Sequence record: NC_052663.1
Origin: Escherichia phage VEcB
DNA length: 64,000 nucleotides
Direction: 5' to 3' (one strand)
Each line of letters opens with the position of its first letter. Within the stretch, counting starts at the first letter, position 1. Below are positions 4,667 to 64,000 of the stretch, piece after piece. Both the position numbers and the translations under genes were made by a program. The notes beneath the pieces are model-generated. The model had not been told where the DNA came from. It did not search any database and saw nothing but the letters and a program-made list of their open reading frames with translations.

Positions 4667-6628
4667 GTGATTTTAACACGTCCAAATAGTGCCATTGCAG
4701 ACATGGTAGAGTCTCGCTATAGAAAGCGTAGAAGTTTTGCAAGTGGTTTTACCTTAAGAGATGCTCGTGAAGCATTGCTCTTTGAAACTGACGGTAACTA
4801 CTATCAGTGGAAAGGTTCTCTACCTAAAGTTGTACCTGCTAACTCTACTCCTACATCTACTGGAGGGATTTCAGATACAGCTTGGAAAAATGTGGGTAAT
4901 GCAGATGACATTGCTCAAATAGAATCAGAATTAGATGCTATTGAAGCTGAAATTGAAGATCTTAGAGAATCCATTCCAGAAGCTGGTAAATCAGCTTACC
5001 AGATTGCCGTAGACAATGGTTTCCAAGGTGCTGAGACAGACTGGTTGGCTTCTTTAAAAGGTGATCCAGGTGCTCCATTAAAGCTGCTAGGGACGCTATC
5101 TAATACCAACCAATTACCTACAACCGGAAACAATGCAGGAGATGCATGGATTGTAGGAGAAAATATGTATGCTTGGGATGGTACTGCTTGGAGAAAAGTA
5201 AACTCACAGGGGCCAGAAGGTAAATCAGCTTATCAAGTTTGGCTTGCAGCAGGAAACCAAGGTACAGAACTAGATTATCTTGCTTCAATTAAAGGTGATA
5301 AAGGGGAACCTGGCCCAGAGGGGCCACAAGGTGTACCAGGTAACAATGCTAATGGTTTTGATTACCAAGGTGCAGCTAATTCCGTTTCAGATCTTCCTTC
5401 TGCATCTCCTGGAAACACATCTCAAGCATGGAGTATTGGTACATATCTATACGTGTCAAACGGTGTAGAATGGATCAATATGGGCGCTATAGTGGGGCCA
5501 AAAGGAGATAAAGGCGACAAAGGAGATAAGGGTAACACTGGTGATTCAGCTTATCAAGTCTGGTTAAACGCTGGTAACGTTGGTACTATTGACGAATATA
5601 TTGCCTCTCTGAAAGGAGAAAAAGGTGATAAGGGAGACAAGGGTGATCAAGGTGAGCAGGGTATACAAGGCTTGACGGGGCCAACTGGTGCAGGGTTGAC
5701 CATTATTGATATTCTGACTGACACTTCTGAACTACCACAAACTGGAGAAGATGGTGATGGTTATCTGATCAATAATGAACTTTGGGTTTGGTTGCAAGGA
5801 GCCACACAGTGGACAAATGTTGGTCGTTTAGCTGGTACTCCAATCACTGCAAAAGGACACGTTGCGTCTGCAAGTGCACTTCCTCCTACATCCAATTACG
5901 GTGATGCTTATCTAACGGAAGACACAGGTCATCTTTACATTTACACCTATGATGAACAAACTCAAACTGCTGAATATGTAGATATGGGTAGTTTGAAAGG
6001 TGATAAGGGTGAGAAAGGTGACGCTGGTACTAACGGTACGGATGGTGCAACTTGGATTGTTAAAACAACAGATCCAATCTCTAGTGATGGTAAACAAGGT
6101 GATTATGCCTTTAATATCTCCACTGGCGAGGTGTTCTTAAAAACATCTGCAACTGTCTGGACTTCTCAAGGTACACTACCTAGCATCACAGATGCACCTA
6201 GTGACGGTAAGATCTATGCTCGTAAAGATGGAGCATGGGAAGAACTAACTAGTTCTGTAGATGGTCAAGATATAGTTCCAACAAAAGTAACAGCTAATTT
6301 TATAGAGGTTACAGCATACACCAACAACTCTGTTATAGGTGACTGGACACCTCCAGGAACACATAACATGAATGTGTTGAATCTTACTGGTAACGCTACT
6401 ATAAAAGCATGGCCTGGTGTCGAAGATAGCACAAAACCTAAACCATTCTCTGCAATAGTTTATCTTATCCAAGATGCCACTGGAGGTCGTACTGTTACTT
6501 TAGATCCATCTTACAAAGTAATTGGTTCTAGTGATATTAATACAGATCCTAACGGAGTAACAATACTACAACTAACATATTGTGGTGTTGGCAATTACGT
6601 GGATGCTATTGTTGCTAAACGCACATAA
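4667..6628 (+). CDS. Tail fibre protein with collagen-like Gly-X-Y tracts and three copies of a ~35-aa repeat
   Basis: GTG start with AAAGGAG RBS; GDKGDKGDKGNTGDS, GEKGDKGDKGDQGEQGIQGLTGPTG; repeat SAYQ(I/V)..G..GTE.DYLAS(L/I)KG(D/E) present three times. Confidence 0.6.
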   Translation: MILTRPNSAIADMVESRYRKRRSFASGFTLRDAREALLFETDGNYYQWKGSLPKVVPANSTPTSTGGISDTAWKNVGNADDIAQIESELDAIEAEIEDLRESIPEAGKSAYQIAVDNGFQGAETDWLASLKGDPGAPLKLLGTLSNTNQLPTTGNNAGDAWIVGENMYAWDGTAWRKVNSQGPEGKSAYQVWLAAGNQGTELDYLASIKGDKGEPGPEGPQGVPGNNANGFDYQGAANSVSDLPSASPGNTSQAWSIGTYLYVSNGVEWINMGAIVGPKGDKGDKGDKGNTGDSAYQVWLNAGNVGTIDEYIASLKGEKGDKGDKGDQGEQGIQGLTGPTGAGLTIIDILTDTSELPQTGEDGDGYLINNELWVWLQGATQWTNVGRLAGTPITAKGHVASASALPPTSNYGDAYLTEDTGHLYIYTYDEQTQTAEYVDMGSLKGDKGEKGDAGTNGTDGATWIVKTTDPISSDGKQGDYAFNISTGEVFLKTSATVWTSQGTLPSITDAPSDGKIYARKDGAWEELTSSVDGQDIVPTKVTANFIEVTAYTNNSVIGDWTPPGTHNMNVLNLTGNATIKAWPGVEDSTKPKPFSAIVYLIQDATGGRTVTLDPSYKVIGSSDINTDPNGVTILQLTYCGVGNYVDAIVAKRT

Positions 6629-6631
6629 TCA

Positions 6632-6657
6632 AAGCCCCTTCGGGGGCTTATTATTTA
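6632..6657 (+). terminator. Rho-independent terminator after the collagen-like fibre gene
   Basis: GCCCC-TTCG-GGGGC hairpin followed by TTATTATTT. Confidence 0.55.
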
Positions 6658-6667
6658 AGGAGATTAA

Positions 6668-8554
6668 ATGTATCCTATTCCTTTATTTATGTCAACAACA
6701 TCAGCTTCAGTAGTAACAGCTACATCTATAACCACTTCCTCTATTGGTATTGCAATAGTTGGTAGTAAAAAGCAACTGACATACACAGTTTCACCGGAAG
6801 ATGGTGCGTTATTTGATATAGCTTTTTCATCTTCAGATAATACCAAAATGGTTATAGATAATAGTGGTATGATGGAGTTTGTTGCCGAAGGTGGTTTTGA
6901 TGCAATAATGACAGCTAAAAATAATTTAGGTGCTGTCTTAACTGATCAATCTGGTGGTTATGCTTCAGAATTAAGCGTGTACACTGAAAGTCTATCCGCT
7001 ATGGATGTAGGCACTACTCAACAGTTGGTTGCTACAATCAGTCCAGAAGGTGCTAAAGACCTTCCAGATATGGTAATTACATACACCACAACAGATCCAG
7101 AAGTAGCTACTGTAAGCCCTACAGGATTAATAACTGCTCTTAAAGATGGCAATTGCCGTATAGGTTGTACTGCAACGTATCAAGGAACAGTTGTGGCCTC
7201 TGATAGTTCTTATTTAGGTGTTAATGCTATTCCTGTTATTTCTAATGTAACAGCCGTGGCAAACAGTTATGGAGACGTTCGTGTTGCTTGGGATGTAACT
7301 GATCCACTAGACGGTGATACTTATACTGTAGAAGTATTAGATTTAAGTGATAATAGTGTTCAGTGGACTACAACAACCACGAATACTTACGCTTACTTTG
7401 ATATCTCTGACTCTATTCCTCTTTATGGGTTTGCTCCAACATACCTTAAAATTAGCGTTAAGAGCACCAAAGCAGCAGCCGTTATCTTTAATAACTCAAT
7501 AGCTACAGATGATTCGTTCATTAAAGAAGTTATTGTCTTTGCTGGACAAGATAACGTAAATGCACACTTTACAGAATTATCTGGTGCAAATAAAGCAGTA
7601 ATGAGTAGCACAACAACCCGTAATGCATATGCTACGCAACGTGGTTTAGCAAATGCTGAAGTTCTTCCGTTAAATACAGCTTCTGGATCATCAGCAGCAG
7701 ATAAATATGCTGACGATAAAGCTGGAACAGGTACACCAGACAACTACTGGTATGATCTGGATAACACAGCAGATGGGCCATGCTTAACTAACTTTATCAC
7801 TAAAGTCACACCTTATGCAAGTAAGGTTAAAGCAATTATTTGGGGACAAGGTGAAAATGATGCTGTATCAGCATCTTCGACTGTTGCAGGTAGGTACAGT
7901 AACACTACACGTTACCATGATGCTACGATAGCTATCTTTGATAAGATGCGTACAATAGTTCCTGCTTCTCAAGCAAAAATTGTTTGGCAGATCCTAGGAC
8001 GTTCTTATTTATATGGTGTAGAAGTTAATGGTGTGGATTGGCAGAAGTACAGAAATGTACAAAGAACCATCTCTACAGCACGTGATGATGTTATCATTGG
8101 TTCTTGGGTAGATGGTGCTGAACGTTACAGTGGTTATGTTTATGAAGAAGGTATTGATGGTCGTATCCATTATATTTCTTCTGTATATCAAACAGCAGCT
8201 ACAAAACTTGCTAAATCAGCAGCAGACGGTACAGATTTAACATCAACACCACCTGTTTGGGTTGATATGTCTGTTCCAACAGGAGGAGCCGCTGTAAGAC
8301 AAGCTAACCAAGATGCAATTATTTCTTGGGAACCAGCAGGATATACCAAACATTACTTCCGAAATGTAAACGTCCTCACAGCAGCAATTCTTACAGAACA
8401 AACTCTTGATACTAACACTTACACATTTACTTATGCAGATCAGGTTGAACAATACGGGTTTGCAGCAGGTACAGCAGTGTTTGATGTTGCACACTATGAT
8501 GCTGATAATGACGTGTTATCACCTCTTGTCAGATTTACAGTCAATGTTACATAA
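6668..8554 (+). CDS. Tail fibre/spike protein with Ig-like (Big_2-type) region and C-terminal SASA/SGNH-like carbohydrate esterase-like domain
   Basis: Big_2-like segment (PEVATVSPTGLITALKDGNCRIGCTA); C-terminal IIWGQGENDA resembles the W-x-QGE-(S/N)-D motif of sialate O-acetylesterase-like domains; upstream FAGQDNVN where GQSN would be expected. Confidence 0.45.
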   Translation: MYPIPLFMSTTSASVVTATSITTSSIGIAIVGSKKQLTYTVSPEDGALFDIAFSSSDNTKMVIDNSGMMEFVAEGGFDAIMTAKNNLGAVLTDQSGGYASELSVYTESLSAMDVGTTQQLVATISPEGAKDLPDMVITYTTTDPEVATVSPTGLITALKDGNCRIGCTATYQGTVVASDSSYLGVNAIPVISNVTAVANSYGDVRVAWDVTDPLDGDTYTVEVLDLSDNSVQWTTTTTNTYAYFDISDSIPLYGFAPTYLKISVKSTKAAAVIFNNSIATDDSFIKEVIVFAGQDNVNAHFTELSGANKAVMSSTTTRNAYATQRGLANAEVLPLNTASGSSAADKYADDKAGTGTPDNYWYDLDNTADGPCLTNFITKVTPYASKVKAIIWGQGENDAVSASSTVAGRYSNTTRYHDATIAIFDKMRTIVPASQAKIVWQILGRSYLYGVEVNGVDWQKYRNVQRTISTARDDVIIGSWVDGAERYSGYVYEEGIDGRIHYISSVYQTAATKLAKSAADGTDLTSTPPVWVDMSVPTGGAAVRQANQDAIISWEPAGYTKHYFRNVNVLTAAILTEQTLDTNTYTFTYADQVEQYGFAAGTAVFDVAHYDADNDVLSPLVRFTVNVT

Positions 8555-8559
8555 ACAAA

Positions 8560-8588
8560 AAGGAGCCAATAGGCTCCTTTTCTTTTAT
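8560..8588. terminator. Bidirectional terminator at the convergence of the + strand tail block and the - strand block
   Basis: GGAGCC-AATA-GGCTCC hairpin with T-tracts on both sides. Confidence 0.6.
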
Positions 8589-8589
8589 C

Positions 8590-9021
8590 TTAATCAGTGA
8601 AAATTACGCTCACATCTTCTTTAGAGAAGAGTTTATGATCTTCACCTTTTGTCTCAAGAGTTTCATACAGGTTAAGAAGTTCTGAAACATCTTTCTCTAC
8701 TAGTTTCTTCAATGTTGCAATTTTCTGTTTGCGATTTTTAATACGTTCAGCTACAACCTTACGTTGGTATCCGGCAGTACGATAACCTGAGAAAGTTACA
8801 CCAGTGAGACTTGCAGTTACAGGATCGTAATGACGTTCAATCTGAAATTTATTAAAAGGTACAGCGTCATCACGAATAATCTTACCGCCATTACTTACTT
8901 GACGAAGACCAGTAACTTGTTCTAGTCGTGCCATAGAAATCTTTGGAGACAGACCAGAGTCCAGGTTCATACCGTTGTTAATCAGTGCTTTCAGGGTGAT
9001 TTTGCTGTTCAGTGTACTCAT
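8590..9021 (-). CDS. Hypothetical protein
   Basis: ORF track; GGAGGAA RBS 7 nt upstream of ATG; start overlaps the end of the methyltransferase gene. Confidence 0.35.
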   Translation of the reverse strand: MSTLNSKITLKALINNGMNLDSGLSPKISMARLEQVTGLRQVSNGGKIIRDDAVPFNKFQIERHYDPVTASLTGVTFSGYRTAGYQRKVVAERIKNRKQKIATLKKLVEKDVSELLNLYETLETKGEDHKLFSKEDVSVIFTD

Positions 9022-9709
9022 TTAGTCGTTCCTCCGCTTGCTTAAAAATATTTACATCGGCTTCACAGCCTAAGTATTCTCTACCTGTTAAAAGTGCCGC
9101 AACTTGTGTTGTTGCACTCCCAGAGAAGAAGTCTAAGACTACATCTCCTTCGTTGGTGTGTATATTAATAAGGTCACAAAACAAAGTCAAGTGTTTTTGT
9201 GTTGGATGAAAACGATCTGCTCCTTGATAGATAGGATACTCAAACACACCCTTATGGTAGGAAGCATTGAAGGTTGGCTTCGAACCTTTAACACAAACAA
9301 TAGCCATCTCTTTAGCGTTACTAAGATAGTTAACACCACTGTTGATGGGTACAGGGTTTGTTTTAATCCATTCGATAGTACGGAACATACGAAAACCAAG
9401 CGGTTCAAGGATTTCACGTAGCTCCTGGATCTTCCAGATATCATACCAAACTATGCAAGTACCACCTTTTCTAAGCACCCTGTAGGCTTCTTTGAATACT
9501 TCTTTAAAGTAAGGAATATCTACAACATCCCAATCACCAAAGTTGTAAGATACACGGAATCTATCCGTATCTTTTCCAGTAGGCTCTCCAGATTGAAAAT
9601 TTGTGTCACGAGAAATAGCATATGGTGGGTCAGTAAGAATCAAATCTACACTATTGCTTTCGAGGGTTTGCAGGTAGTTTAATGCGGTGTTGTTTACAAA
9701 TTCGCTCAT
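8978..9709 (-). CDS. DNA methyltransferase, beta-class (N6-adenine or N4-cytosine)
   Basis: N-terminal DPPY motif (LILTDPPYAISRD) and C-terminal AdoMet motif (VLDFFSGSATT): the circularly permuted order typical of beta-class amino-MTases. Confidence 0.7.
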   Translation of the reverse strand: MSEFVNNTALNYLQTLESNSVDLILTDPPYAISRDTNFQSGEPTGKDTDRFRVSYNFGDWDVVDIPYFKEVFKEAYRVLRKGGTCIVWYDIWKIQELREILEPLGFRMFRTIEWIKTNPVPINSGVNYLSNAKEMAIVCVKGSKPTFNASYHKGVFEYPIYQGADRFHPTQKHLTLFCDLINIHTNEGDVVLDFFSGSATTQVAALLTGREYLGCEADVNIFKQAEERLNEYTEQQNHPESTD

Positions 9710-9717
9710 TATATCTC

Positions 9718-9746
9718 CTTCAAAGAAAAGGAGCCGTTAGGCTCCT
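9718..9746 (-). terminator. Terminator downstream of the SSB-like gene
   Basis: GGAGCC-GTTA-GGCTCC hairpin followed on the minus strand by TTTTCTTT. Confidence 0.5.
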
Positions 9747-9769
9747 TATATTCACACAATATTTAACTA

Positions 9770-10717
9770 TTAGAAACAGTGCAGGAAGTTTCGACCATAC
9801 TGCAAACCAATAGGAGCAAATGGGATATCATCATCGAAATCTTGAACAACAGGTTCTGGTTCTTTCGGTGCTGGCTCTTTCTTCTCTACTTTTTTAGTTT
9901 CTTTCTTAACTTCTTGTACTGGGGTAGACATTCCACGGATAGCAGCAGCTACTTTATCAGACAAAGCAAGAACTTCACGAGCAGCTTCAATAATCTCTTC
10001 TGCCGTTACAGTTTTACCTGTATGATCACGACAAGCGTTAAGAATTGCGTGTCCAACTGAAGCACCAAGATCATAGTCAGTCACATCAACGCCACGATCT
10101 TTAGCAATTTCTGCTTTCAGAGTAACAGTTGCAGATTGTACCACACCAGCCAAGTCGAAAGCATCACCTTTCACACCAGCACGTAGAAGCTCCAGAGCGC
10201 CATTTACAGCGTGTCCTGTTTCAATCCCTACAGTATCACGTTTTTTGTAGTTAGGTTTGCTACCTTCGTTATTAGATGGCTTATTTCCACCTTTTGAAGA
10301 AGATTGTGCTTGCTGAACACCTTCTGTTGAAAGAACAGTGATTTTACCTTTAGAGGAGTTGTAGTATGTTTTGCCATTCCATTCGGAAGGTTTAACATCC
10401 ATAGTTACTTCTACACCTTTTTCGATAGTAATCCACTTATCACCATCTTTAACTTGCAGGTTTTCATGTTCTGGGTGCAGTTTAACTTCACCTAGGCTAA
10501 CCCAAACACCTTTATCATCAGCACCAGCACCTTTCTCTTTAATAAGCAGAGATGCTTTGTGAGTTGATTCAATTTTCTTATCTGGCTGACCTGCAACCTT
10601 AATATAAGAGACTTTCATTTCATCAAACTTATCCAGTTTGACATATTCAACGATACCTTCAGCCCAGAATGCTTCTTTTTTAGTACGACGGTCGATTTCA
10701 GAATTAATTACTGGCAT
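9770..10717 (-). CDS. Putative ssDNA-binding / recombination-associated protein carrying an SSB C-terminal-tip-like motif (DFDDDIPF)
   Basis: GAGGAG RBS; C-terminal region PVVQDFDDDIPF matches the E. coli SSB acidic tip but is followed by 14 more residues. Confidence 0.45.
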   Translation of the reverse strand: MPVINSEIDRRTKKEAFWAEGIVEYVKLDKFDEMKVSYIKVAGQPDKKIESTHKASLLIKEKGAGADDKGVWVSLGEVKLHPEHENLQVKDGDKWITIEKGVEVTMDVKPSEWNGKTYYNSSKGKITVLSTEGVQQAQSSSKGGNKPSNNEGSKPNYKKRDTVGIETGHAVNGALELLRAGVKGDAFDLAGVVQSATVTLKAEIAKDRGVDVTDYDLGASVGHAILNACRDHTGKTVTAEEIIEAAREVLALSDKVAAAIRGMSTPVQEVKKETKKVEKKEPAPKEPEPVVQDFDDDIPFAPIGLQYGRNFLHCF

Positions 10718-39016: not shown

Positions 39017-41791
39017 TTAGTTTACCAGTTTATTTATATCTGGTAAAAGATTTATTTCACCTAAAAAATCACCTTCACCTTCCTCTAACCAACTCTCATA
39101 TGCTTGTGCATGATTATAGTTACCATCAAAAGAATCTGCAACAAATTTTTCTACAGCTTTTCGAGATGTGCCAGCGCCAAATACACCAAGTTTAATACCA
39201 TTGATCGGTAAAGTGGTGCTTGTTGGTACTTTCTCTGTTGCAACACGGTTGATATCTATAATCTCCTGTACGGTTGTGTTCCATTGTAAGCATTTAACAC
39301 AACGGGTATGCGCTACATACAGTAGGTTTCGCTCTGCCTCTTCCAGTCCTACCCATTCACCAGTCTTTTTATCATAGTTGGAAGGAAAATCATTAGCAAC
39401 AATAACCTGATCCCACTCCAAACCTTTAGACTTGTGTGCTGTAGTAAGTGTGACTTTTGCTGTAGGAGAATTTCTGTGCGTTCTAAGTGTATGTGCTATG
39501 GTGTTCGCCTTACCAGAAACTACGATGTTTAACAAGCGTTTAGCATCTGGATCAGCCTCTGCACACTCAACAAATTCATCCCAGTCTGCGTAAGGTAATA
39601 CAGTTTCATGTTTTACTTTCTCAATATCTCCTCTCCGAAGAGCATTAACACTATCTACCATAGAGATAAAATCCCTGGTATCTACGTTAATAATAATTTC
39701 TTCCCCATCTGCAATACGATCCATTGCCTCCATAAGCAAGGTTAAATTCTTGCGAAAGATGATAGTGTAAGGTTTTGTATAGTCTACAACATCTGATTTG
39801 TAGCTACCTACTACAGTATCAAAGCCTTTACCAACCAAAGGATGACGCAAAGGTTCTTTATCGCTTAAAATCATATTGGCAATGTTTGCCACTTTGGGGC
39901 CAAAACGGAAGCAAGCAGTTAATGGAAGCTCTGCCCCATACTTAGCTGTTTCAATCATCATATTAGAGCTACCTCTAAATTGATAAATGCAGTTGTGGCT
40001 AAGAATTTCATTGCCAAAGAAGTTAGCAGTATCCTCTACTTCAATATCATAATAGATACCCTCACTATCTACAATGTCCACAATCTCTTCTGCCGTTACA
40101 GTATCACCATCTTTTACCAACACAGACATGCCTTTAAACAAACCCGCTGCCGGAATTAAGTTATATTTGGCACTGTTCACAGAGGACATGCATTCTTTTA
40201 AAGATGCAAACGGAACTATTTCAAGGATCTTTTGTGCAAAACTCAATGCTTCACGATAAGAATTGAAATATTTACGTACACGGTAACGACCTTCCAATTT
40301 AGCAGCACTTACGCTTACACCTGCTTTAATCAGTGAAGAATAGATCGGCATTTCACTTTCTGTCCACTCAAAACTAACTTGTGTTCCTTTACAACCTTGT
40401 GCTCGCAAAGTCACTGTTAGCATTTTTCTTTCATCTACTGCACAATTGATGCTGTGCCAGTGTGGATAAGCAAAATGATAATCTTTATCCTCTAAAAGTT
40501 TAAAACCATTTTGTCCGAATTGTTCAAAGATGTTATTGATCCTTTCTTGATTAATGCCGCGTGAACTTGCTTCAAATACACAAGTAGGAATGCCATATTG
40601 TAAACTGTATGCCATTTCTTTTTCCATAGCAGCTTCACGGTTTTCAACAATATCCAACACCCATAATTTCTGTGCTTTTTCAGAACGTGTACGTTGCCCC
40701 AGTTTAGAAAAACCTTCTTTATCATCGAATTTGTTAGTGATCCCTACTCGGAAACCTAAATCTTTCCTCCACATTAGGTATACCACCATCTGATCATCTT
40801 TCAGAACATAGGATGAAGCCCAAATACGATGGTTATGTGTCATATCTAAAGTTTTACCTGTGGCAGTAATAATATTCCTACCTTTTGTACGTGTAGATAA
40901 AGTCTTATTTGTTACTTTTCTAAATGTAATTTTACCATTAGAATAAGACTCTACCTTATCACCGATTTGTAGGTCTTTCATTGTAACCTGACCATTCTCG
41001 GTATTAAGTACCGTGTTTTCCGACACACATTGGAATTCATCGCCCACTACCACAATTTGTTTTGCAGATTTAGCATTTCGCAGAATAGACAAGAATGCAG
41101 GGTTAACATCCTGGAATTCATCACCAAAAATAATGTCATAACCAAGGTCAGCACCTGATAATTCAAACAATTTTACATAGGTGTCATGCGTCATCAAAGT
41201 ATCTGTGTTAGGATCGATGCGCTCTCGCCACAATTGTTTTGCATACTTAACCACTTCTGTAATTAGTTTGTGTTCGTTAATACCTTTTCTTTTAATATCT
41301 GCAAGATGTACACTAGGAAAATGTTTACGGCTGATAAAAGGATCATCCGAAAATTCAAACTTACCTACGGTTTGCTTGATCATTAAACCGATCATAGCAC
41401 GAGTTAAAAGTGTTTTACCTCGTTTATCAATAAGATTATTAATCTTAAATTTCTTTGCTATCTCGCTACCTGTACCTGCAACGTTAACATACTGTCCTTC
41501 TGGTCGTGACAGTTTTGCGCGTAAACGATGATCCAGGAATTGATAGCAAATAGAATGCAATGTACGGCATTCTACATTTAGTGGCATCTTACGTCGTGCT
41601 TCTTCTGCCATGCTTTTATTGAAAGCTAAGTAAAGAATGCGATCTTCTGTACTGTTAGCCAGCAAATAAAGTGTTGACGTTTTGCCTGATCCAGATTTAG
41701 CTTGGATAGTTAAAAAGCGATGGTCTGGAAAAGCCTCCTTAATAGCTGTTTGCTCTTCTGTTGGAGTGAAGCTCAACTCTTTCTTAGCCAT
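39017..41791 (-). CDS. SF1 (UvrD/PcrA-like) DNA helicase interrupted by an intein
   Basis: Motif I AKSGSGKT, motif II GDEFQD, motif III split as VVVGDEFQ / [intein] / CIYQFRGSS; start at MAKKELS with AGAGG RBS. Confidence 0.7.
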   Translation of the reverse strand: MAKKELSFTPTEEQTAIKEAFPDHRFLTIQAKSGSGKTSTLYLLANSTEDRILYLAFNKSMAEEARRKMPLNVECRTLHSICYQFLDHRLRAKLSRPEGQYVNVAGTGSEIAKKFKINNLIDKRGKTLLTRAMIGLMIKQTVGKFEFSDDPFISRKHFPSVHLADIKRKGINEHKLITEVVKYAKQLWRERIDPNTDTLMTHDTYVKLFELSGADLGYDIIFGDEFQDVNPAFLSILRNAKSAKQIVVVGDEFQCVSENTVLNTENGQVTMKDLQIGDKVESYSNGKITFRKVTNKTLSTRTKGRNIITATGKTLDMTHNHRIWASSYVLKDDQMVVYLMWRKDLGFRVGITNKFDDKEGFSKLGQRTRSEKAQKLWVLDIVENREAAMEKEMAYSLQYGIPTCVFEASSRGINQERINNIFEQFGQNGFKLLEDKDYHFAYPHWHSINCAVDERKMLTVTLRAQGCKGTQVSFEWTESEMPIYSSLIKAGVSVSAAKLEGRYRVRKYFNSYREALSFAQKILEIVPFASLKECMSSVNSAKYNLIPAAGLFKGMSVLVKDGDTVTAEEIVDIVDSEGIYYDIEVEDTANFFGNEILSHNCIYQFRGSSNMMIETAKYGAELPLTACFRFGPKVANIANMILSDKEPLRHPLVGKGFDTVVGSYKSDVVDYTKPYTIIFRKNLTLLMEAMDRIADGEEIIINVDTRDFISMVDSVNALRRGDIEKVKHETVLPYADWDEFVECAEADPDAKRLLNIVVSGKANTIAHTLRTHRNSPTAKVTLTTAHKSKGLEWDQVIVANDFPSNYDKKTGEWVGLEEAERNLLYVAHTRCVKCLQWNTTVQEIIDINRVATEKVPTSTTLPINGIKLGVFGAGTSRKAVEKFVADSFDGNYNHAQAYESWLEEGEGDFLGEINLLPDINKLVN
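39992..41029 (-). mobile_element. Intein (about 346 aa) in helicase motif III
   Basis: Begins with Cys (CVSENTVLNTENGQ), block B TLDMTHNHRIW, block F/G DIEVEDTANFFGNEILSHN followed by extein Cys; extein junction reconstitutes GDEFQ-CIYQFRG. Confidence 0.6.
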
Positions 41792-41792
41792 T

Positions 41793-42269
41793 TCAACCTC
41801 TCTTAATTTGTTTAACAAGCATAGGAACAAAATCTCGTTTTAAAATTTGTTCAATAATATGATCAGGTAGCTGTTGGAAATTATAATTAAAAGCTACTGT
41901 CTCACCTTTAGGTGTTTCTACCCGCACATATAACATGTTACGAAGTTTATCCACTTGTGCTGTATATTCTAAACCATGTAATTGATGCATTGCAAACATC
42001 AAATCATCAGTTTCAGTTTGGAATCTATCATTTGCTTGCATTAAGGATAAGGTAAAAGGTAGATTTTCCCTAAGAGCCACCTTCTTAGGAACTAGTGAAG
42101 GAAAATACTCACCAATAACTTCCTGTGTAAGCTGGATACACTCTTTTTCAAGTTGGTTTTGTTCCTTAAGTTCACAAACACTTTTTTGTAAAGTGTTAAC
42201 CTCTTTTTGCAAAGCTGCTAGTTGAGCACTTAACTTTCTTTTTTGATTACGACCAAAACGTTTAGACAT
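41793..42269 (-). CDS. Hypothetical coiled-coil protein
   Basis: ORF track. Confidence 0.35.
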   Translation of the reverse strand: MSKRFGRNQKRKLSAQLAALQKEVNTLQKSVCELKEQNQLEKECIQLTQEVIGEYFPSLVPKKVALRENLPFTLSLMQANDRFQTETDDLMFAMHQLHGLEYTAQVDKLRNMLYVRVETPKGETVAFNYNFQQLPDHIIEQILKRDFVPMLVKQIKRG

Positions 42270-50360: not shown

Positions 50361-51350
50361 ATGGCAGCACCAAAATCATGGGAACAATATAAAGAAGAGT
50401 GTATACCAATAGCAGAGAGTAAGCAAATCCAAATCTTAGGATGGACGGGACAATGGAAAGGGGTCCACACAAAACTTGATTTGTTGTGCCATTGTGGTTA
50501 TAAATGGGATACTACAAGTATTAACAGTTTTAAATGTGGTAGCGGTTGTCCACAATGTAGGAGGAAGAATATAAGGAAGTCACAAACAATGTCCGACGAT
50601 CAACATATTGCAGATTTCTTTTCTACAGGGGAATTTAAGGAAGGCACTATCTTCACTAACACAGGAACACGGGGTAAAGGATGTAGGAATATTATCTGGA
50701 TGGTTGAATGTCCTGTTTGCTCTCATGATGAATATGTTCAAGCAGGTGTTTGTGATGGTAAATTTTACTCTGAAGGAGATAACCTTAAACGAGGGTATAT
50801 TCCGTGTCGTTGTGGGAACTATCGGTATACAGAAGACCAGATCACCTATAGGGTAAAAAAGGAAGTAGAAGGGAAAGGGTATGTCTGGGTAGATTGGATT
50901 ACCAAACCCTCTTCTATAGGTAAGTTTAAATATCTTTGTCTTGTGCATGGTGAGCAGATAGGGAGTGCTCATAATTTATTAAGCCTCGGTCGAGGTTGTC
51001 CTATGTGTGCTGGTCATAGTCAGCAGCAGTTATATATTAATATTGTTAAGGATGATAATATTATAGTTGCTCTTAAGTTTGGTATAGCTAAAGATAGTGA
51101 TAGACGATTAAAAATTCAAAATAGCCGTAATATGTTTCCTATGGAGCGTATTTGTTTATATGATTTTAGCACAGTAAAACAATGTAAGGCTGCTGAAAGA
51201 GCTATAAAGAAAAAATTAAAAACTGGTATTTTAACGGAAAGAGAGTTGAAAGACGGTTATACAGAAACAGTAAGTGTTTCTGATTTGGAAAATCTTCAAA
51301 AAATTATTACACAATATGGTGGCAAATTAGTATACAGTAAGGAGATGTAA
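50361..51350 (+). CDS. Zinc-ribbon-rich protein, possibly nuclease/homing-endonuclease-like
   Basis: Several CxxC pairs (CGSGCPQC, CPVCSHDE, CPMC); RBS AAGAGGAG. Confidence 0.3.
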   Translation: MAAPKSWEQYKEECIPIAESKQIQILGWTGQWKGVHTKLDLLCHCGYKWDTTSINSFKCGSGCPQCRRKNIRKSQTMSDDQHIADFFSTGEFKEGTIFTNTGTRGKGCRNIIWMVECPVCSHDEYVQAGVCDGKFYSEGDNLKRGYIPCRCGNYRYTEDQITYRVKKEVEGKGYVWVDWITKPSSIGKFKYLCLVHGEQIGSAHNLLSLGRGCPMCAGHSQQQLYINIVKDDNIIVALKFGIAKDSDRRLKIQNSRNMFPMERICLYDFSTVKQCKAAERAIKKKLKTGILTERELKDGYTETVSVSDLENLQKIITQYGGKLVYSKEM

Positions 51351-51902
51351 ATGCGGATTACTGATAAGTATGTGTTCTTCTTTTCAGCAAAAGATGAATT
51401 TAGCAACTGGTATCTATCATCTTTTATTGAACCTTTAGCACCCAAGTATAATAATTCTATTACAAGTTCTGTTGAATTTACTTGTGTGGAACAATATATG
51501 ATGTGGAGAAAAGCATGTTTGTTTTATGATTACAGTATTGCATCTTCTATTTTAACCGGAGATCTAAGATATACAGGAGAAAAAGAACAAGCATATTATA
51601 AGCGACTAGGCAGATTAGTTAAAGATTATGATGAAGATACCTGGACTTCTTTACGGGAGAAGATTGTCAAACGTGGTTTGTATCTTAAATACACACAAAA
51701 TGAAGATCTCAAAAATAAACTTATAACCTACGCAGATAAGGAGTTCGTAGAGGCAAGCCCTTATGATTCTATTTATGGTATCAAAATGGGGATGTGGGAT
51801 CGTGACGTGGAAAATAAGGACTGTTGGAAAGGACAAAATCTTTTAGGAAAATGGCATACAGACCTTGCTGTTTATCTAAAAGCACAATCTGATATTTCCT
51901 GA
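51351..51902 (+). CDS. NADAR-domain (YbiA-like) protein
   Basis: Motifs FFFSAKDEFSNWYLSSF and W..G.NLLGKWHTDL match the NADAR/DUF1768 family pattern; ATG overlaps the upstream stop. Confidence 0.55.
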   Translation: MRITDKYVFFFSAKDEFSNWYLSSFIEPLAPKYNNSITSSVEFTCVEQYMMWRKACLFYDYSIASSILTGDLRYTGEKEQAYYKRLGRLVKDYDEDTWTSLREKIVKRGLYLKYTQNEDLKNKLITYADKEFVEASPYDSIYGIKMGMWDRDVENKDCWKGQNLLGKWHTDLAVYLKAQSDIS

Positions 51903-52099
51903 TATTTTGAAAATTTTTATTTTTATAAAAAGGGGTGTGGGTTTCATGTACGGAAATTCACCCTCTGAATAATATATTCAGAGTAAATATTATTTTGTAC
52001 TCTGTTAATAAATTATTTAATTTGTTTGTTGGATTATGATATCTGGTTTTTAAAAGGCATACTATCTCTTAACTACTATTTATAACAGAACAGTAAAAT

Positions 52100-52330
52100 C
52101 ATTTTTATAAAAAGGACAAAATTATTTAAAGTTTTTACAGATTTTTGGATACAAATTTTGAAAATGAAAAGTTCAAGTTTGGTCAAAATTATTTAAAGTT
52201 TTTGTATGTATTTCTATCCATATTTTGAAAATGAAAACTTCAATTTTTTAAAAATTCCCCAGTTTATTTAAAGTTTTTTTGCCTTTTTCCGTAGAAAAAT
52301 GAAAAATGAAAAGTTCAATTTCGTGTTTTT
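52100..52330. repeat. Three tandem ~65-70-bp direct repeats in an AT-rich non-coding region
   Basis: Each unit carries AAATTATTTAAAGTTTTT and TTTTGAAAATGAAAAGTTCAA; TTTTTATAAAAAGG also occurs twice upstream. Confidence 0.6.
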
Positions 52331-52339
52331 ATAGGTGTG

Positions 52340-52455
52340 CTAATGAGAATCATTTTCGTTTGTAAATGAGAATCATTATCATTTAACTATGTAAGTGATA
52401 ATCATTCTCAGTAAGAGAATGAGAATCATTAGCAAATGAGAATTTTATCATTTAG
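52340..52455. promoter_or_regulatory. Cluster of five 13-bp palindromes AATGAGAATCATT (and variants) resembling the Fur-box core
   Basis: Copies at ~52342, 52365, 52397 (inverted), 52430, 52434; the 52362-52380 copy matches 16/19 positions of GATAATGATAATCATTATC. Confidence 0.5.
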
Positions 52456-52714
52456 AGAATAACGCGCAGGGGTGGTGTTTGTCTCGCGCTCCCGTGTCCC
52501 CTCGCCATACAATAAGAATAGCATAACCAACAACAAAAGCAAGCGATTATTTTTATCTTTACATTTCTTTACAAATTTATTTTAGACGAGCTACCGGCGA
52601 TCAACCTTCCAACCAGTGCCCCCTGGTATGTTAGCCCCGCCTTTACGCCGTGGGGGTGGCGCTTCCTCTTCTGTATGTAAAACAGTATAAGCCCGATCCC
52701 TGGGCTTGTCAAGA

Positions 52715-53062
52715 TTATTTTTTGTTTTCTTGCCAGGATAGGACACCTAACCAAAAATACATGTCGCCCCGCGCCCCTGGTGGGATCTTGCTTTCCCCGC
52801 CGCCACTGCAAGCCCATAGATAACCATTTGCGAACGTATCAAAATGATCTATTTCTTCCACCTTATGATCGCCCAGGTTGAGAACGGTTTCAACCTTTAA
52901 GCCCGTTGCGCTTGCTACCTGGTGCACCGTGCCGCCTTGCCAGCCCAATGAGTGCATGAGGTGTAAAGTAGTATTTGTCATGGTATCGCCCTTTCTTTGA
53001 TGTGCGCCCTGGTTGGCGCGGTAGAAAGATAATAGCCCCTTTCCTTTATAGATAGCAAGCAA
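52715..53062 (-). CDS. Hypothetical protein inside a GC-rich island (true start possibly the internal Met MTNTT)
   Basis: ORF track; local GC clearly above the window average. Confidence 0.3.
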   Translation of the reverse strand: MLAIYKGKGLLSFYRANQGAHQRKGDTMTNTTLHLMHSLGWQGGTVHQVASATGLKVETVLNLGDHKVEEIDHFDTFANGYLWACSGGGESKIPPGARGDMYFWLGVLSWQENKK

Positions 53063-62912: not shown

Positions 62913-62945
62913 ACCAGGGCGCACAAAGCGCCCTTTCTTTTTACC
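62913..62945 (+). terminator. Rho-independent terminator closing the small-gene array
   Basis: AGGGCGC-ACAAA-GCGCCCT followed by TTCTTTTT. Confidence 0.6.
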
Positions 62946-63149
62946 TAAATAAAGATGATAGCTTTTACCTATCAAAAACGTTCACCGAAAAAAGTGAATA
63001 GATCGCGGTATCGAGCTAATCAAGGAGCAGATGAATAACCATACCATGAAGATCATAAGGCGTTTACAACGTGTTTTAGACCGCTTGTTTTTAATTTCTT
63101 CATGCAACTATCTGGCAAAAACAGCCTTTTTCTTGTCTTTCCTCTTAAA

Positions 63150-63222
63150 TAATAATCATTCTCATTTATAGCTGATTATTTATGCAATAAACTGAATAAT
63201 GTAATAATGATAATCATTCTTA
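63150..63222. promoter_or_regulatory. Two further Fur-box-like palindromes
   Basis: AATAATCATTCTCATT at ~63151 and TAATAATGATAATCATTCT at ~63202 (16/19 to the Fur-box consensus, core AATGATAATCATT exact). Confidence 0.45.
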
Positions 63223-64000
63223 ACTTAAGGCCATCTAACCTATAAAATAATAAGCTATCTAACTAAATTAAAGCTAATTATCTCACCTTTATTTATAACT
63301 TACTGTTACTATCTCATTGATAACCTTATATTAAACAACAATAACTAATATAAATCATTACCAAGCTAAATATAATCTATCTAACCTTTAAAACTATAAC
63401 TATAATCTATTGAATTATTGCACAAAGTAACTATTAAATCGTTAGTAACATTACTAAATAATTCATATCCTATCTATTTATGATCTAACCTTTACCTTCT
63501 TATCTATTACCTAAGTAATCATTTCATACAATAACTATAACAAGAAATATAATTCGCAAGCGTATCATTAGCAGCCTATGCCGGACACATAGGCGGCTAA
63601 TAATAACGCAACTACACACCCCACATAATAACCATCACCGATAGTTATTATTTGTGCTTATGTAGCTTGCAACAATTGCAAGCGCAACAATATACATGGT
63701 ATATTGTATTCCCTTACATTGTTGCGGTGCGTTATTATTAGCTAATGTTTAGAACATTGGCTATAATATAAGCTATCCAATAATAAACATAATGAATAAT
63801 GATACTGAAATGAATAATGACACTGATGATCATAATGCGCCACCTTCCAGGGGGCGCTATGTGAACACAAAGAAATCTTTCTTGTCAAGAAAAATATTAC
63901 CACTATTGCGCAAAATTATTTTTATCTGAATAGATGATTTTTCATACTATTGCCCCCTTGATTATTACTATTTGTTGAGTATAGTTATCCCTATTTGTTG

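Follow-up and report, generated by a model that had tools for sequence, protein, structure and literature searches.

The locus described here raises the question of why a strictly lytic phage should keep, in DNA without genes, a row of palindromes that look like operators of the host iron sensor Fur, and of which protein reads them. The window (the whole 64-kb stretch of DNA that was analyzed) comes from a phi92-like myophage of E. coli, a virulent representative of Justusliebigvirus (Stephanstirmvirinae). The 1-kb stretch around the array is 99% identical to Escherichia phage AV123 and 96–98% identical to about 50 further Justusliebigvirus genomes. Four records filed as “Campylobacter phage” (MG065639, MG065645, MG065656, and MG065689; host C. 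jejuni) are 98% identical over the locus, and these names probably reflect a labeling or contamination problem in the database.

The palindromes had been assigned to a non-coding region in the preliminary description, and this location is confirmed: the array sits in an 812-bp gene-free gap, which extends from the end of the NADAR gene at 51902 to a minus-strand gene of 88 aa at 52715–52981. The plus-strand operon that ends at 51902 encodes an AAA ATPase, a CapR/T5orf172 endonuclease, and the NADAR protein. The CapR/T5orf172-type endonuclease gene (50361–51350, 990 nt), two genes upstream of the module described below, is longer in the relatives inny and muut (1173–1191 nt). Downstream of the array, neither a protein-coding gene nor a recognized RNA was found, and a tRNA/tmRNA scan of the window revealed none. 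Coding potential of the GC-rich part of the gap was considered and rejected: relatives differ there by 1-nt indels and the records annotate ORFs on different strands, which indicates that no protein is encoded there. A derivation of the locus from a captured host promoter was rejected as well, since none of 5,426 E. coli genomes showed similarity to it. Two GenBank records label parts of the gap merely “repeat_region.”

A 13-bp palindrome recurring five times within about 115 bp had been reported at this position. Five palindromes of the Fur type are indeed present at 52341–52454, far beyond what chance would give, but only three of the five are exact copies of AATGAGAATCATT (52342–52354, 52365–52377, and 52418–52430). 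The fourth copy, AGTGATAATCATT (52394–52406), has two mismatches, and the fifth, AAATGAGAATTTTATCATTT (52434–52453), keeps the same arms around another center, with a spacing of 7-0-7, not 7-1-7; its counterpart in close relatives is AAATGAGAATTTTTCTCATTT. The functional unit is longer than the 13-mer and corresponds to the 15-bp 7-1-7 inverted repeat TGAnAATnATTnTCA with C at its center; one Fur dimer binds per 15-mer repeat of this kind. Scored against the 19-bp Fur consensus GATAATGATAATCATTATC, the matches starting at 52339, 52362, 52391, and 52415 reach 16, 16, 15, and 16 of 19 positions, so that the 16/19 match noted earlier for one copy is correct and is true of three boxes. The spacings of 23, 29, and 24 bp show no helical phasing. 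The boxes are as follows.

52341–52361: Fur box 1, TAATGAGAATCATTTTCGTTT; 16/19 to the consensus, 7-1-7 core 11/12 (in relatives GGATGATAATCATTCTCATTT, core 12/12).
52364–52384: Fur box 2, AAATGAGAATCATTATCATTT; 16/19, core 12/12.
52393–52413: Fur box 3, AAGTGATAATCATTCTCAGTA; 15/19, core 12/12.
52417–52437: Fur box 4, GAATGAGAATCATTAGCAAAT; 16/19, core 11/12.
52434–52453: Fur box 5 (proximal), AAATGAGAATTTTATCATTT; 7-0-7 spacing variant, at the same position as the always-present box of the relatives.

The Fur-site scan with statistics that had been suggested as a check confirmed the excess: five sites of at least 16/19 are seen in the 64-kb window against 0.03 expected from first-order Markov shuffles. 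With up to two mismatches allowed, AATGAGAATCATT has 14 matches in the window against 4.6 ± 2.1 in shuffled sequences, and none of 100 shuffles reached 14. For calibration, the same 19-bp count was applied to known E. coli operators, which gave 17 for iucA, 16 for fepD-entS, and 15 and 15 for fepB-entC (the latter two being K-12 intergenic regions). The sequence GATAATGAGAATCATTATT was confirmed as the aerobactin operator by its position, since it immediately precedes iucA on over 640 plasmids; box 2 shares with it the 15-mer AATGAGAATCATTAT. Like the iucA P1 (pColV-K30), fepD-entS, and fepB-entC operators, the phage array comprises several adjacent or overlapping boxes, with scores equal to or above those of the chromosomal operators. 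Unlike the aerobactin and fep operators, it controls no iron-uptake gene or other protein gene, and it is located in gene-free DNA of a virulent phage, downstream of a promoter that points at it.

Comparison with the relatives indicates that it is the motif that is maintained across two subfamilies, and not the surrounding sequence. The 56 distinct boxes of the relatives yield the consensus (G/A)AATGA(G/T)AATCATT(C/A)TCATTT, that is, the Fur 7-1-7 core, and this consensus is kept in two phage subfamilies that infect many Enterobacterales. The number of boxes per relative varies from one to five, and the boxes turn over but stay Fur-like. Among close relatives, several positions of a box change together while its Fur likeness stays the same or becomes higher; for example, box 1 of the window, TAATGAGAATCATTTTCG, has the counterpart GGATGATAATCATTCTCA in phage muut. 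Such multi-position changes with retained Fur likeness, together with the variable count, form the pattern expected from selection on a binding motif.

It is highly improbable, in view of these data, that the palindromes resemble Fur boxes only by accident and serve instead as hairpins of a non-coding RNA or as an AT-rich spacer that melts easily. The region is very probably transcribed from the minus-strand promoter P1 (see below), and each box could fold into an AU hairpin of about 7–10 bp. However, the deviations from the palindrome are uncompensated, with arm mismatches in boxes 1 and 4, a 1-nt center cannot form a loop, and specific bases, not pairing, are conserved across the 56 distinct boxes. 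The permissive Rfam hits to the array were hairpin-type chance matches only, and composition as such gives the 0.03 expected sites against the five seen.

Several observations bear on the identity of the protein that reads the boxes. A tblastn search with E. coli Fur as the query revealed no Fur homologue in Stephanstirmvirinae, Vequintavirinae, or T5-like records, and a phage-encoded Fur was rejected as a candidate on this basis. No DNA-binding gene adjoins the array among the flanking genes (AAA ATPase, CapR/T5orf172, NADAR, and small proteins of unknown function). The motif itself recurs in a different group of phages. In T5 (NC_005859), about six consensus Fur-type boxes, with the same box AAATGAGAATCATTATCATTT, are found at 9545–9720 within the annotated injection stop signal. 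The calculated shear point of the first-step transfer (~9618) falls within their span, DnaA boxes come just before them, and a hairpin and the nick at 9748 follow closely. The T5-like phage EC122 has a similar box array next to DnaA boxes at 2510–2690. That unrelated phages with the same hosts have this motif in common points toward a protein of the host. The Fur-box reading of the preliminary description is thus well supported by the operator-level scores, the consensus kept in two subfamilies, the recurrence in T5, and the lack of a phage Fur, and the predicted binding of Fur to the boxes can be regarded as well supported at the sequence level. As possible functions, the preliminary description had named Fur control of a phage locus, titration of Fur, and an operator array for a phage repressor. 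That the five palindromes are genuine host-Fur operators, which would make early non-coding transcription or replication iron-responsive, is in our judgment an evenly balanced proposition.

The array is not an isolated feature, and this most important part of its context was missed in the preliminary description. In a sensitive search, the GC-rich DNA to the right of the boxes showed 70–85% identity to mostly unannotated DNA of Vequintavirinae, including PVP-SE1, CR3, phiTE, Mydo, and phages of Erwinia and Klebsiella. The comparison covered the loci of the subfamily phages and, in addition, viral and metagenomic contigs that were identified through conserved words and through a covariance model. 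Of the 120 metagenome matches to the module, most were due to chance, and 16 were retained by the covariance model. The scan of 185,579 bacterial genomes for copies of the module gave chance-level matches in unrelated taxa only. Stephanstirmvirinae, Vequintavirinae, and their uncultured relatives share a module of constant order: three to four tandem direct repeats of 65–80 bp, one to five Fur boxes, the hexamer nnGAAT, a GC-rich 5' domain, a promoter P2 (TATAAT/TATATT), the repeat TCTTTACA-nn-TCTTTACAAA, a 3' domain of about 93 nt, a minus-strand promoter P1, and a small minus-strand gene. There is about an even chance that this conserved, gene-free module, of which the array is a part, is a control module of the phage that is transcribed early. 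Besides the boxes, the module comprises the following features in the window.

52101–52321: three tandem direct repeats of ~67–75 bp, iteron-like, with the ends TTATTTAAAGTTTTT and TGAAAATGAAAAGTTCAA and a variable middle; GC ~21%.
52455–52460, plus strand: hexamer GAGAAT, −10-like; nnGAAT in all relatives (alignment).
52461–52513: GC-rich 5' domain, conserved across subfamilies; contains GGTGTTTGTCT.
52515–52542, minus strand: tentative promoter P2, TTGCTT (52542–52537)-16-TATTCT (52520–52515); 7/12.
52556–52575: direct repeat TCTTTACA-nn-TCTTTACAAA, which occurs nowhere else in the window.
52585–52677: 3' domain, ~93 nt, with the invariant CTACCGGCGAT, the covarying hairpin A, a second hairpin (CGCC/GGCG), and possibly a pseudoknot.
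52684–52712, minus strand: promoter P1, sigma-70, TTGACA-17-TATACT; 11/12, reads leftwards to the Fur array.
52715–52981, minus strand: small syntenic gene of unknown function (88 aa, PHROG 19316), with its end at the P1 hairpin.

The tandem repeats of the relatives occupy the same place with a different sequence, and they differ between the subfamilies. Within the 64-kb window, the end motifs TTATTTAAAGTTTTT and TGAAAATGAAAAGTTCAA occur at this locus only, and the idea that the repeat motifs are general promoters of the phage was rejected on these grounds. In four metagenome contigs, an insertion of about 270 nt is present between the TCTTTACAAA repeat and the 3' domain, which indicates that the two halves of the module are separable. 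Five other uncultured contigs, which are distant, Stephanstirmvirinae-like, and without a cultured relative, keep the module with the Fur boxes replaced by split palindromes, such as AATGATAccgcacgTTATCATT, GTGATAGT...ACTAT, and AATGATA-ccgcacg-TTATCATT. The retention of the module with another family of palindromes shows that the operator slot is modular; the exchange may reflect either another host regulator or a phage protein. In addition, HNH homing-endonuclease cassettes were found on the minus strand within the module of three contigs. The cassette of L021 (6296–7129) is flanked by a duplicated 3' domain and promoter P1, and that of L031 replaces the Fur boxes together with the 5' domain.

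The promoter evidence favors transcription from right to left, toward the boxes. The minus-strand match of P1 reaches 9–12/12 in 31 of 31 distinct relatives despite a differing spacer, whereas the plus strand of the same stretch has a mean of 6.9. The spacer of P1 holds a GC hairpin (52689–52707), which probably terminates the upstream minus-strand gene. The array begins and ends about 220–335 bp downstream of the P1 start, with the AT-rich repeats beyond; the distance between P1 and the array is not conserved, owing to the ~270-nt insertion in some relatives. P2 is better in the relatives (TTGCAA-17-TATATT); its mean score is 8.7/12 for the minus strand and 7.8 for the plus strand, and the near-palindromic −10 leaves the orientation ambiguous. 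In two relatives, co-directional homing-endonuclease genes lie immediately downstream of P1 or P2; in L031 it is an HNH gene that follows P2 directly on the minus strand. The insertion of minus-strand endonuclease genes just past P1 and P2 fits leftward transcription, and the region is very probably transcribed from P1.

A plus-strand promoter may face P1 and P2. In most lineages, the center of the proximal box is fixed at −17 from the nnGAAT hexamer, and in most Vequintavirinae a TTGAAT inside the proximal box stands 18 nt before CAGAAT. We consider TTGAAT-18-CAGAAT a candidate Fur-overlapped promoter, which would have the classical geometry of Fur repression. In the window this promoter is poor (GCAAAT-17-GAGAAT, with a degenerate −35), and the present array has no clear overlap with a −35 or −10; P1, which is well supported, is directed toward the array from a position over 220 bp upstream.

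The 3' domain, which occurs in one copy per genome, is a structured element. In hairpin A, five of the seven pairs have double compensatory changes (e.g., A-U to G-C in 13 of 41 sequences), and 90% of all cells are paired, compared with 25–52% when the partner is slid; this covariation was reached by 0 of 500 shuffles. The hairpin was set by hand and then tested, since RNAalifold alone missed it. A second short hairpin, CGCC/GGCG, is invariant, and a pseudoknot (CCCC/GGGG versus CCAA/UUGG) is possible, with some support and some exceptions. The thermodynamic stability of the domain is the same as that of shuffled sequences (z ~0) and was rejected as an indication of structure. The counts of G-U versus A-C pairs (4 vs. 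3, then 2 vs. 2) carried no signal for the transcribed strand; the promoter evidence favors the minus strand. The Rfam 15 covariance models produced no match in the window at gathering thresholds, and at the locus only permissive, chance-level hits (E >1). The 3' domain was not found in T5 or in bacterial genomes. Together with the always-present P1, it represents an undescribed conserved non-coding element of these phages.

The architecture of the module could also be that of a replication origin or a packaging site, with the boxes being read by a phage-encoded protein of Fur-like specificity, such as an origin-binding or early regulatory protein; this possibility appears quite unlikely to us. 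The primary origin of T7 consists of tandem promoters followed by an AT-rich stretch, and oriF and oriG of T4 consist of a promoter and an unwinding element. Like these transcription-activated origins, the present locus has one or two promoters that read into a region of 21–24% GC with locus-specific tandem repeats; moreover, the repeats of Vequintavirinae are GATC-rich. The split palindromes of the uncultured relatives, which have similar half-sites at another spacing (AATGATA-N7-TATCATT), could have been produced by a co-evolving phage protein. However, the promoters here are of the host sigma-70 type, unlike those of the T7 and T4 origins, and we know of no Fur boxes in origins of that type. 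The GC skew does not switch at the locus (its minimum, at about 47 kb, follows gene orientation), no DnaA box is present in 51900–52750, and no recognizable initiator gene is found nearby. The same consensus in unrelated T5-like phages and in phages of many host genera is what would be expected of a conserved host protein, and neither a Fur-family gene nor an adjacent DNA-binding gene was found that would account for a phage binder, although one unrelated to Fur might be encoded elsewhere. The rV5 genome paper left a non-coding block unexplained and the origin undefined.

Host Fur, the reader that we prefer, could be used by the phage in more than one way, and the genome-wide distribution of the boxes bears on this point. 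In the 147-kb genome composed of the window and the rest of the AV123 record, all eight boxes with a core of at least 11/12 fall in two gene-free regions, namely the present locus and an AT-rich region of about 1.8 kb that starts at 62935 and runs past the window end (window 62935–64000 plus positions 1–1315 of contig L372, corresponding to AV123 88994–90815). The part of it within the window contains the following feature.

63150–63222: second Fur-box locus, AAATAATAATCATTCTCATTT and TAATGATAATCATTCTTAACT (16/19), starting at 63150 and 63208.

Two more boxes of 12/12 occur in this second region at AV123 90244 and 90439, and an orthologous box is kept in one Phapecoctavirus at 73% identity. 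One of the second-region boxes overlaps the −35 of a promoter-like site at 63220–63248. Several Phapecoctavirus records begin or end within this region.

Such a distribution might mean that the boxes have no target in cis and that about nine boxes on hundreds of replicated genomes soak up the Fur pool. Host iron-uptake genes and RyhB would then be derepressed, and iron would be fed to the phage ribonucleotide reductase. All strong boxes lie in the two gene-free regions, where they disturb nothing, those of the second region are scattered over about 1.3 kb and not placed at one promoter, the box count is free to vary between one and five among relatives, and the phage encodes a di-iron NrdAB. 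The quantities are compatible as well: an E. coli cell contains roughly 5,000–10,000 Fur monomers, and about nine boxes binding four monomers each on 100–300 genomes come to the same order. Multicopy Fur boxes are known to derepress the Fur regulon, an effect on which the FURTA assay is built; the phage resembles FURTA in having many high-affinity boxes on a high-copy replicon, FURTA itself being a laboratory artefact of plasmids. A natural “Fur sponge” of a phage was not described in the searchable literature. On the other hand, several relatives have a single box, too few for titration, the fixed distance between the proximal box and the hexamer would be needless for a pure sponge, and titration would take effect late in infection, at a stage at which further iron import may help little. 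Taking both sides together, we consider titration as the sole function of the boxes unlikely.

The use of Fur as a regulator acting in cis therefore remains our preferred reading, although the events downstream of Fur binding are not well supported, less so than the binding itself. A plausible scenario is that, upon entry of the phage into an iron-replete cell, Fur-Fe2+ would coat the array, probably by polymerizing along the tandem boxes in the manner known from the adjacent and overlapping boxes of the aerobactin promoter. The coating would block or modulate non-coding transcription through the region, in that Fur may act as a roadblock to the leftward transcripts from P1 and P2, may repress the weak, opposing plus-strand promoter with which the proximal box overlaps, or both. 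In an iron-starved cell this gate would open. The likeliest output would be non-coding: either transcription into the repeats and AT-rich region would activate an origin, as in T7 and T4, or a regulatory RNA would be made. Either output would couple an early decision of the phage to the iron supply of the host. The phage itself may depend on iron through its own class Ia (di-iron) ribonucleotide reductase; AV123, the closest complete relative, encodes class Ia NrdA/NrdB. The analysis as a whole suggests that host iron status is something that the phage either reads or manipulates. A broader proposal, that virulent phages of Enterobacterales recruit host Fur as an iron sensor for an early non-coding decision and that the same array is functional in the injection stop of T5, is put forward tentatively and seems to us rather less probable than not.

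To our knowledge, Fur boxes, which are textbook elements, have been known on phages only as switches of prophage cargo genes. The phage array is like the cargo of temperate phages, i.e., stx1 of Stx1 prophages and sitABCD of lambdoid coliphages (PMC6969025), in that a host Fur box is carried on a phage genome, which would connect the phage to the iron regulon of the host. The boxes of stx1 and sitABCD are single, are found at the promoters of protein-coding morons in a prophage, and serve the lysogen, whereas the present boxes form arrays in non-coding hubs of strictly virulent phages and are conserved across subfamilies. In T5, the boxes of “Repeat Region 3” have been listed only as palindromes and direct repeats (DRC), without a Fur interpretation (bioRxiv 10.1101/866236). 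The two loci are alike in having the same box in gene-free DNA beside other repeats, to which T5 adds DnaA boxes; T5 differs in belonging to an unrelated family, in having its boxes in the terminal repeat at the boundary of the first-step transfer, and in having no 3' domain. No report of Fur-box arrays in virulent phages, either in the present module or in T5, was found in the searchable literature. Consensus-quality Fur-box arrays in gene-free control regions of strictly lytic phages of two subfamilies, and of T5 in addition, are thus the new element here.

Many of the phages concerned are candidates for therapy or biocontrol (e.g., phi92, phAPEC8, and relatives of PVP-SE1). If Fur binds to these arrays, the outcome of infection would depend on iron, which is low in host tissues and urine, through a mutable cis element, and there would be a concrete candidate protein for the injection-stop region of T5. 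If Fur is in fact recruited by these phages, iron-loaded Fur on incoming DNA would constitute a general checkpoint of lytic infection, and the replicating arrays would also drain Fur and raise iron import.

Two further observations concern Fur-like sites elsewhere. At 40461–40489 of the window, a Fur-like site of 16/19 lies directly next to a perfect DnaA box on the minus strand, TTATCCACA. This pair lies within the intein-containing part of an ORF for a UvrD/REP-type helicase of 937 aa (39017–41830, minus strand; Intein_splicing/Hint match at aa ~275–613), and the pairing of the two sites may be due to chance. Finally, at least 120 IMG/VR viral contigs, with a GC content from 33% to 61%, have two Fur-type boxes within 50 bp, and several of them have clusters of four to five; Fur boxes in pairs may be a common feature of viral or prophage DNA.
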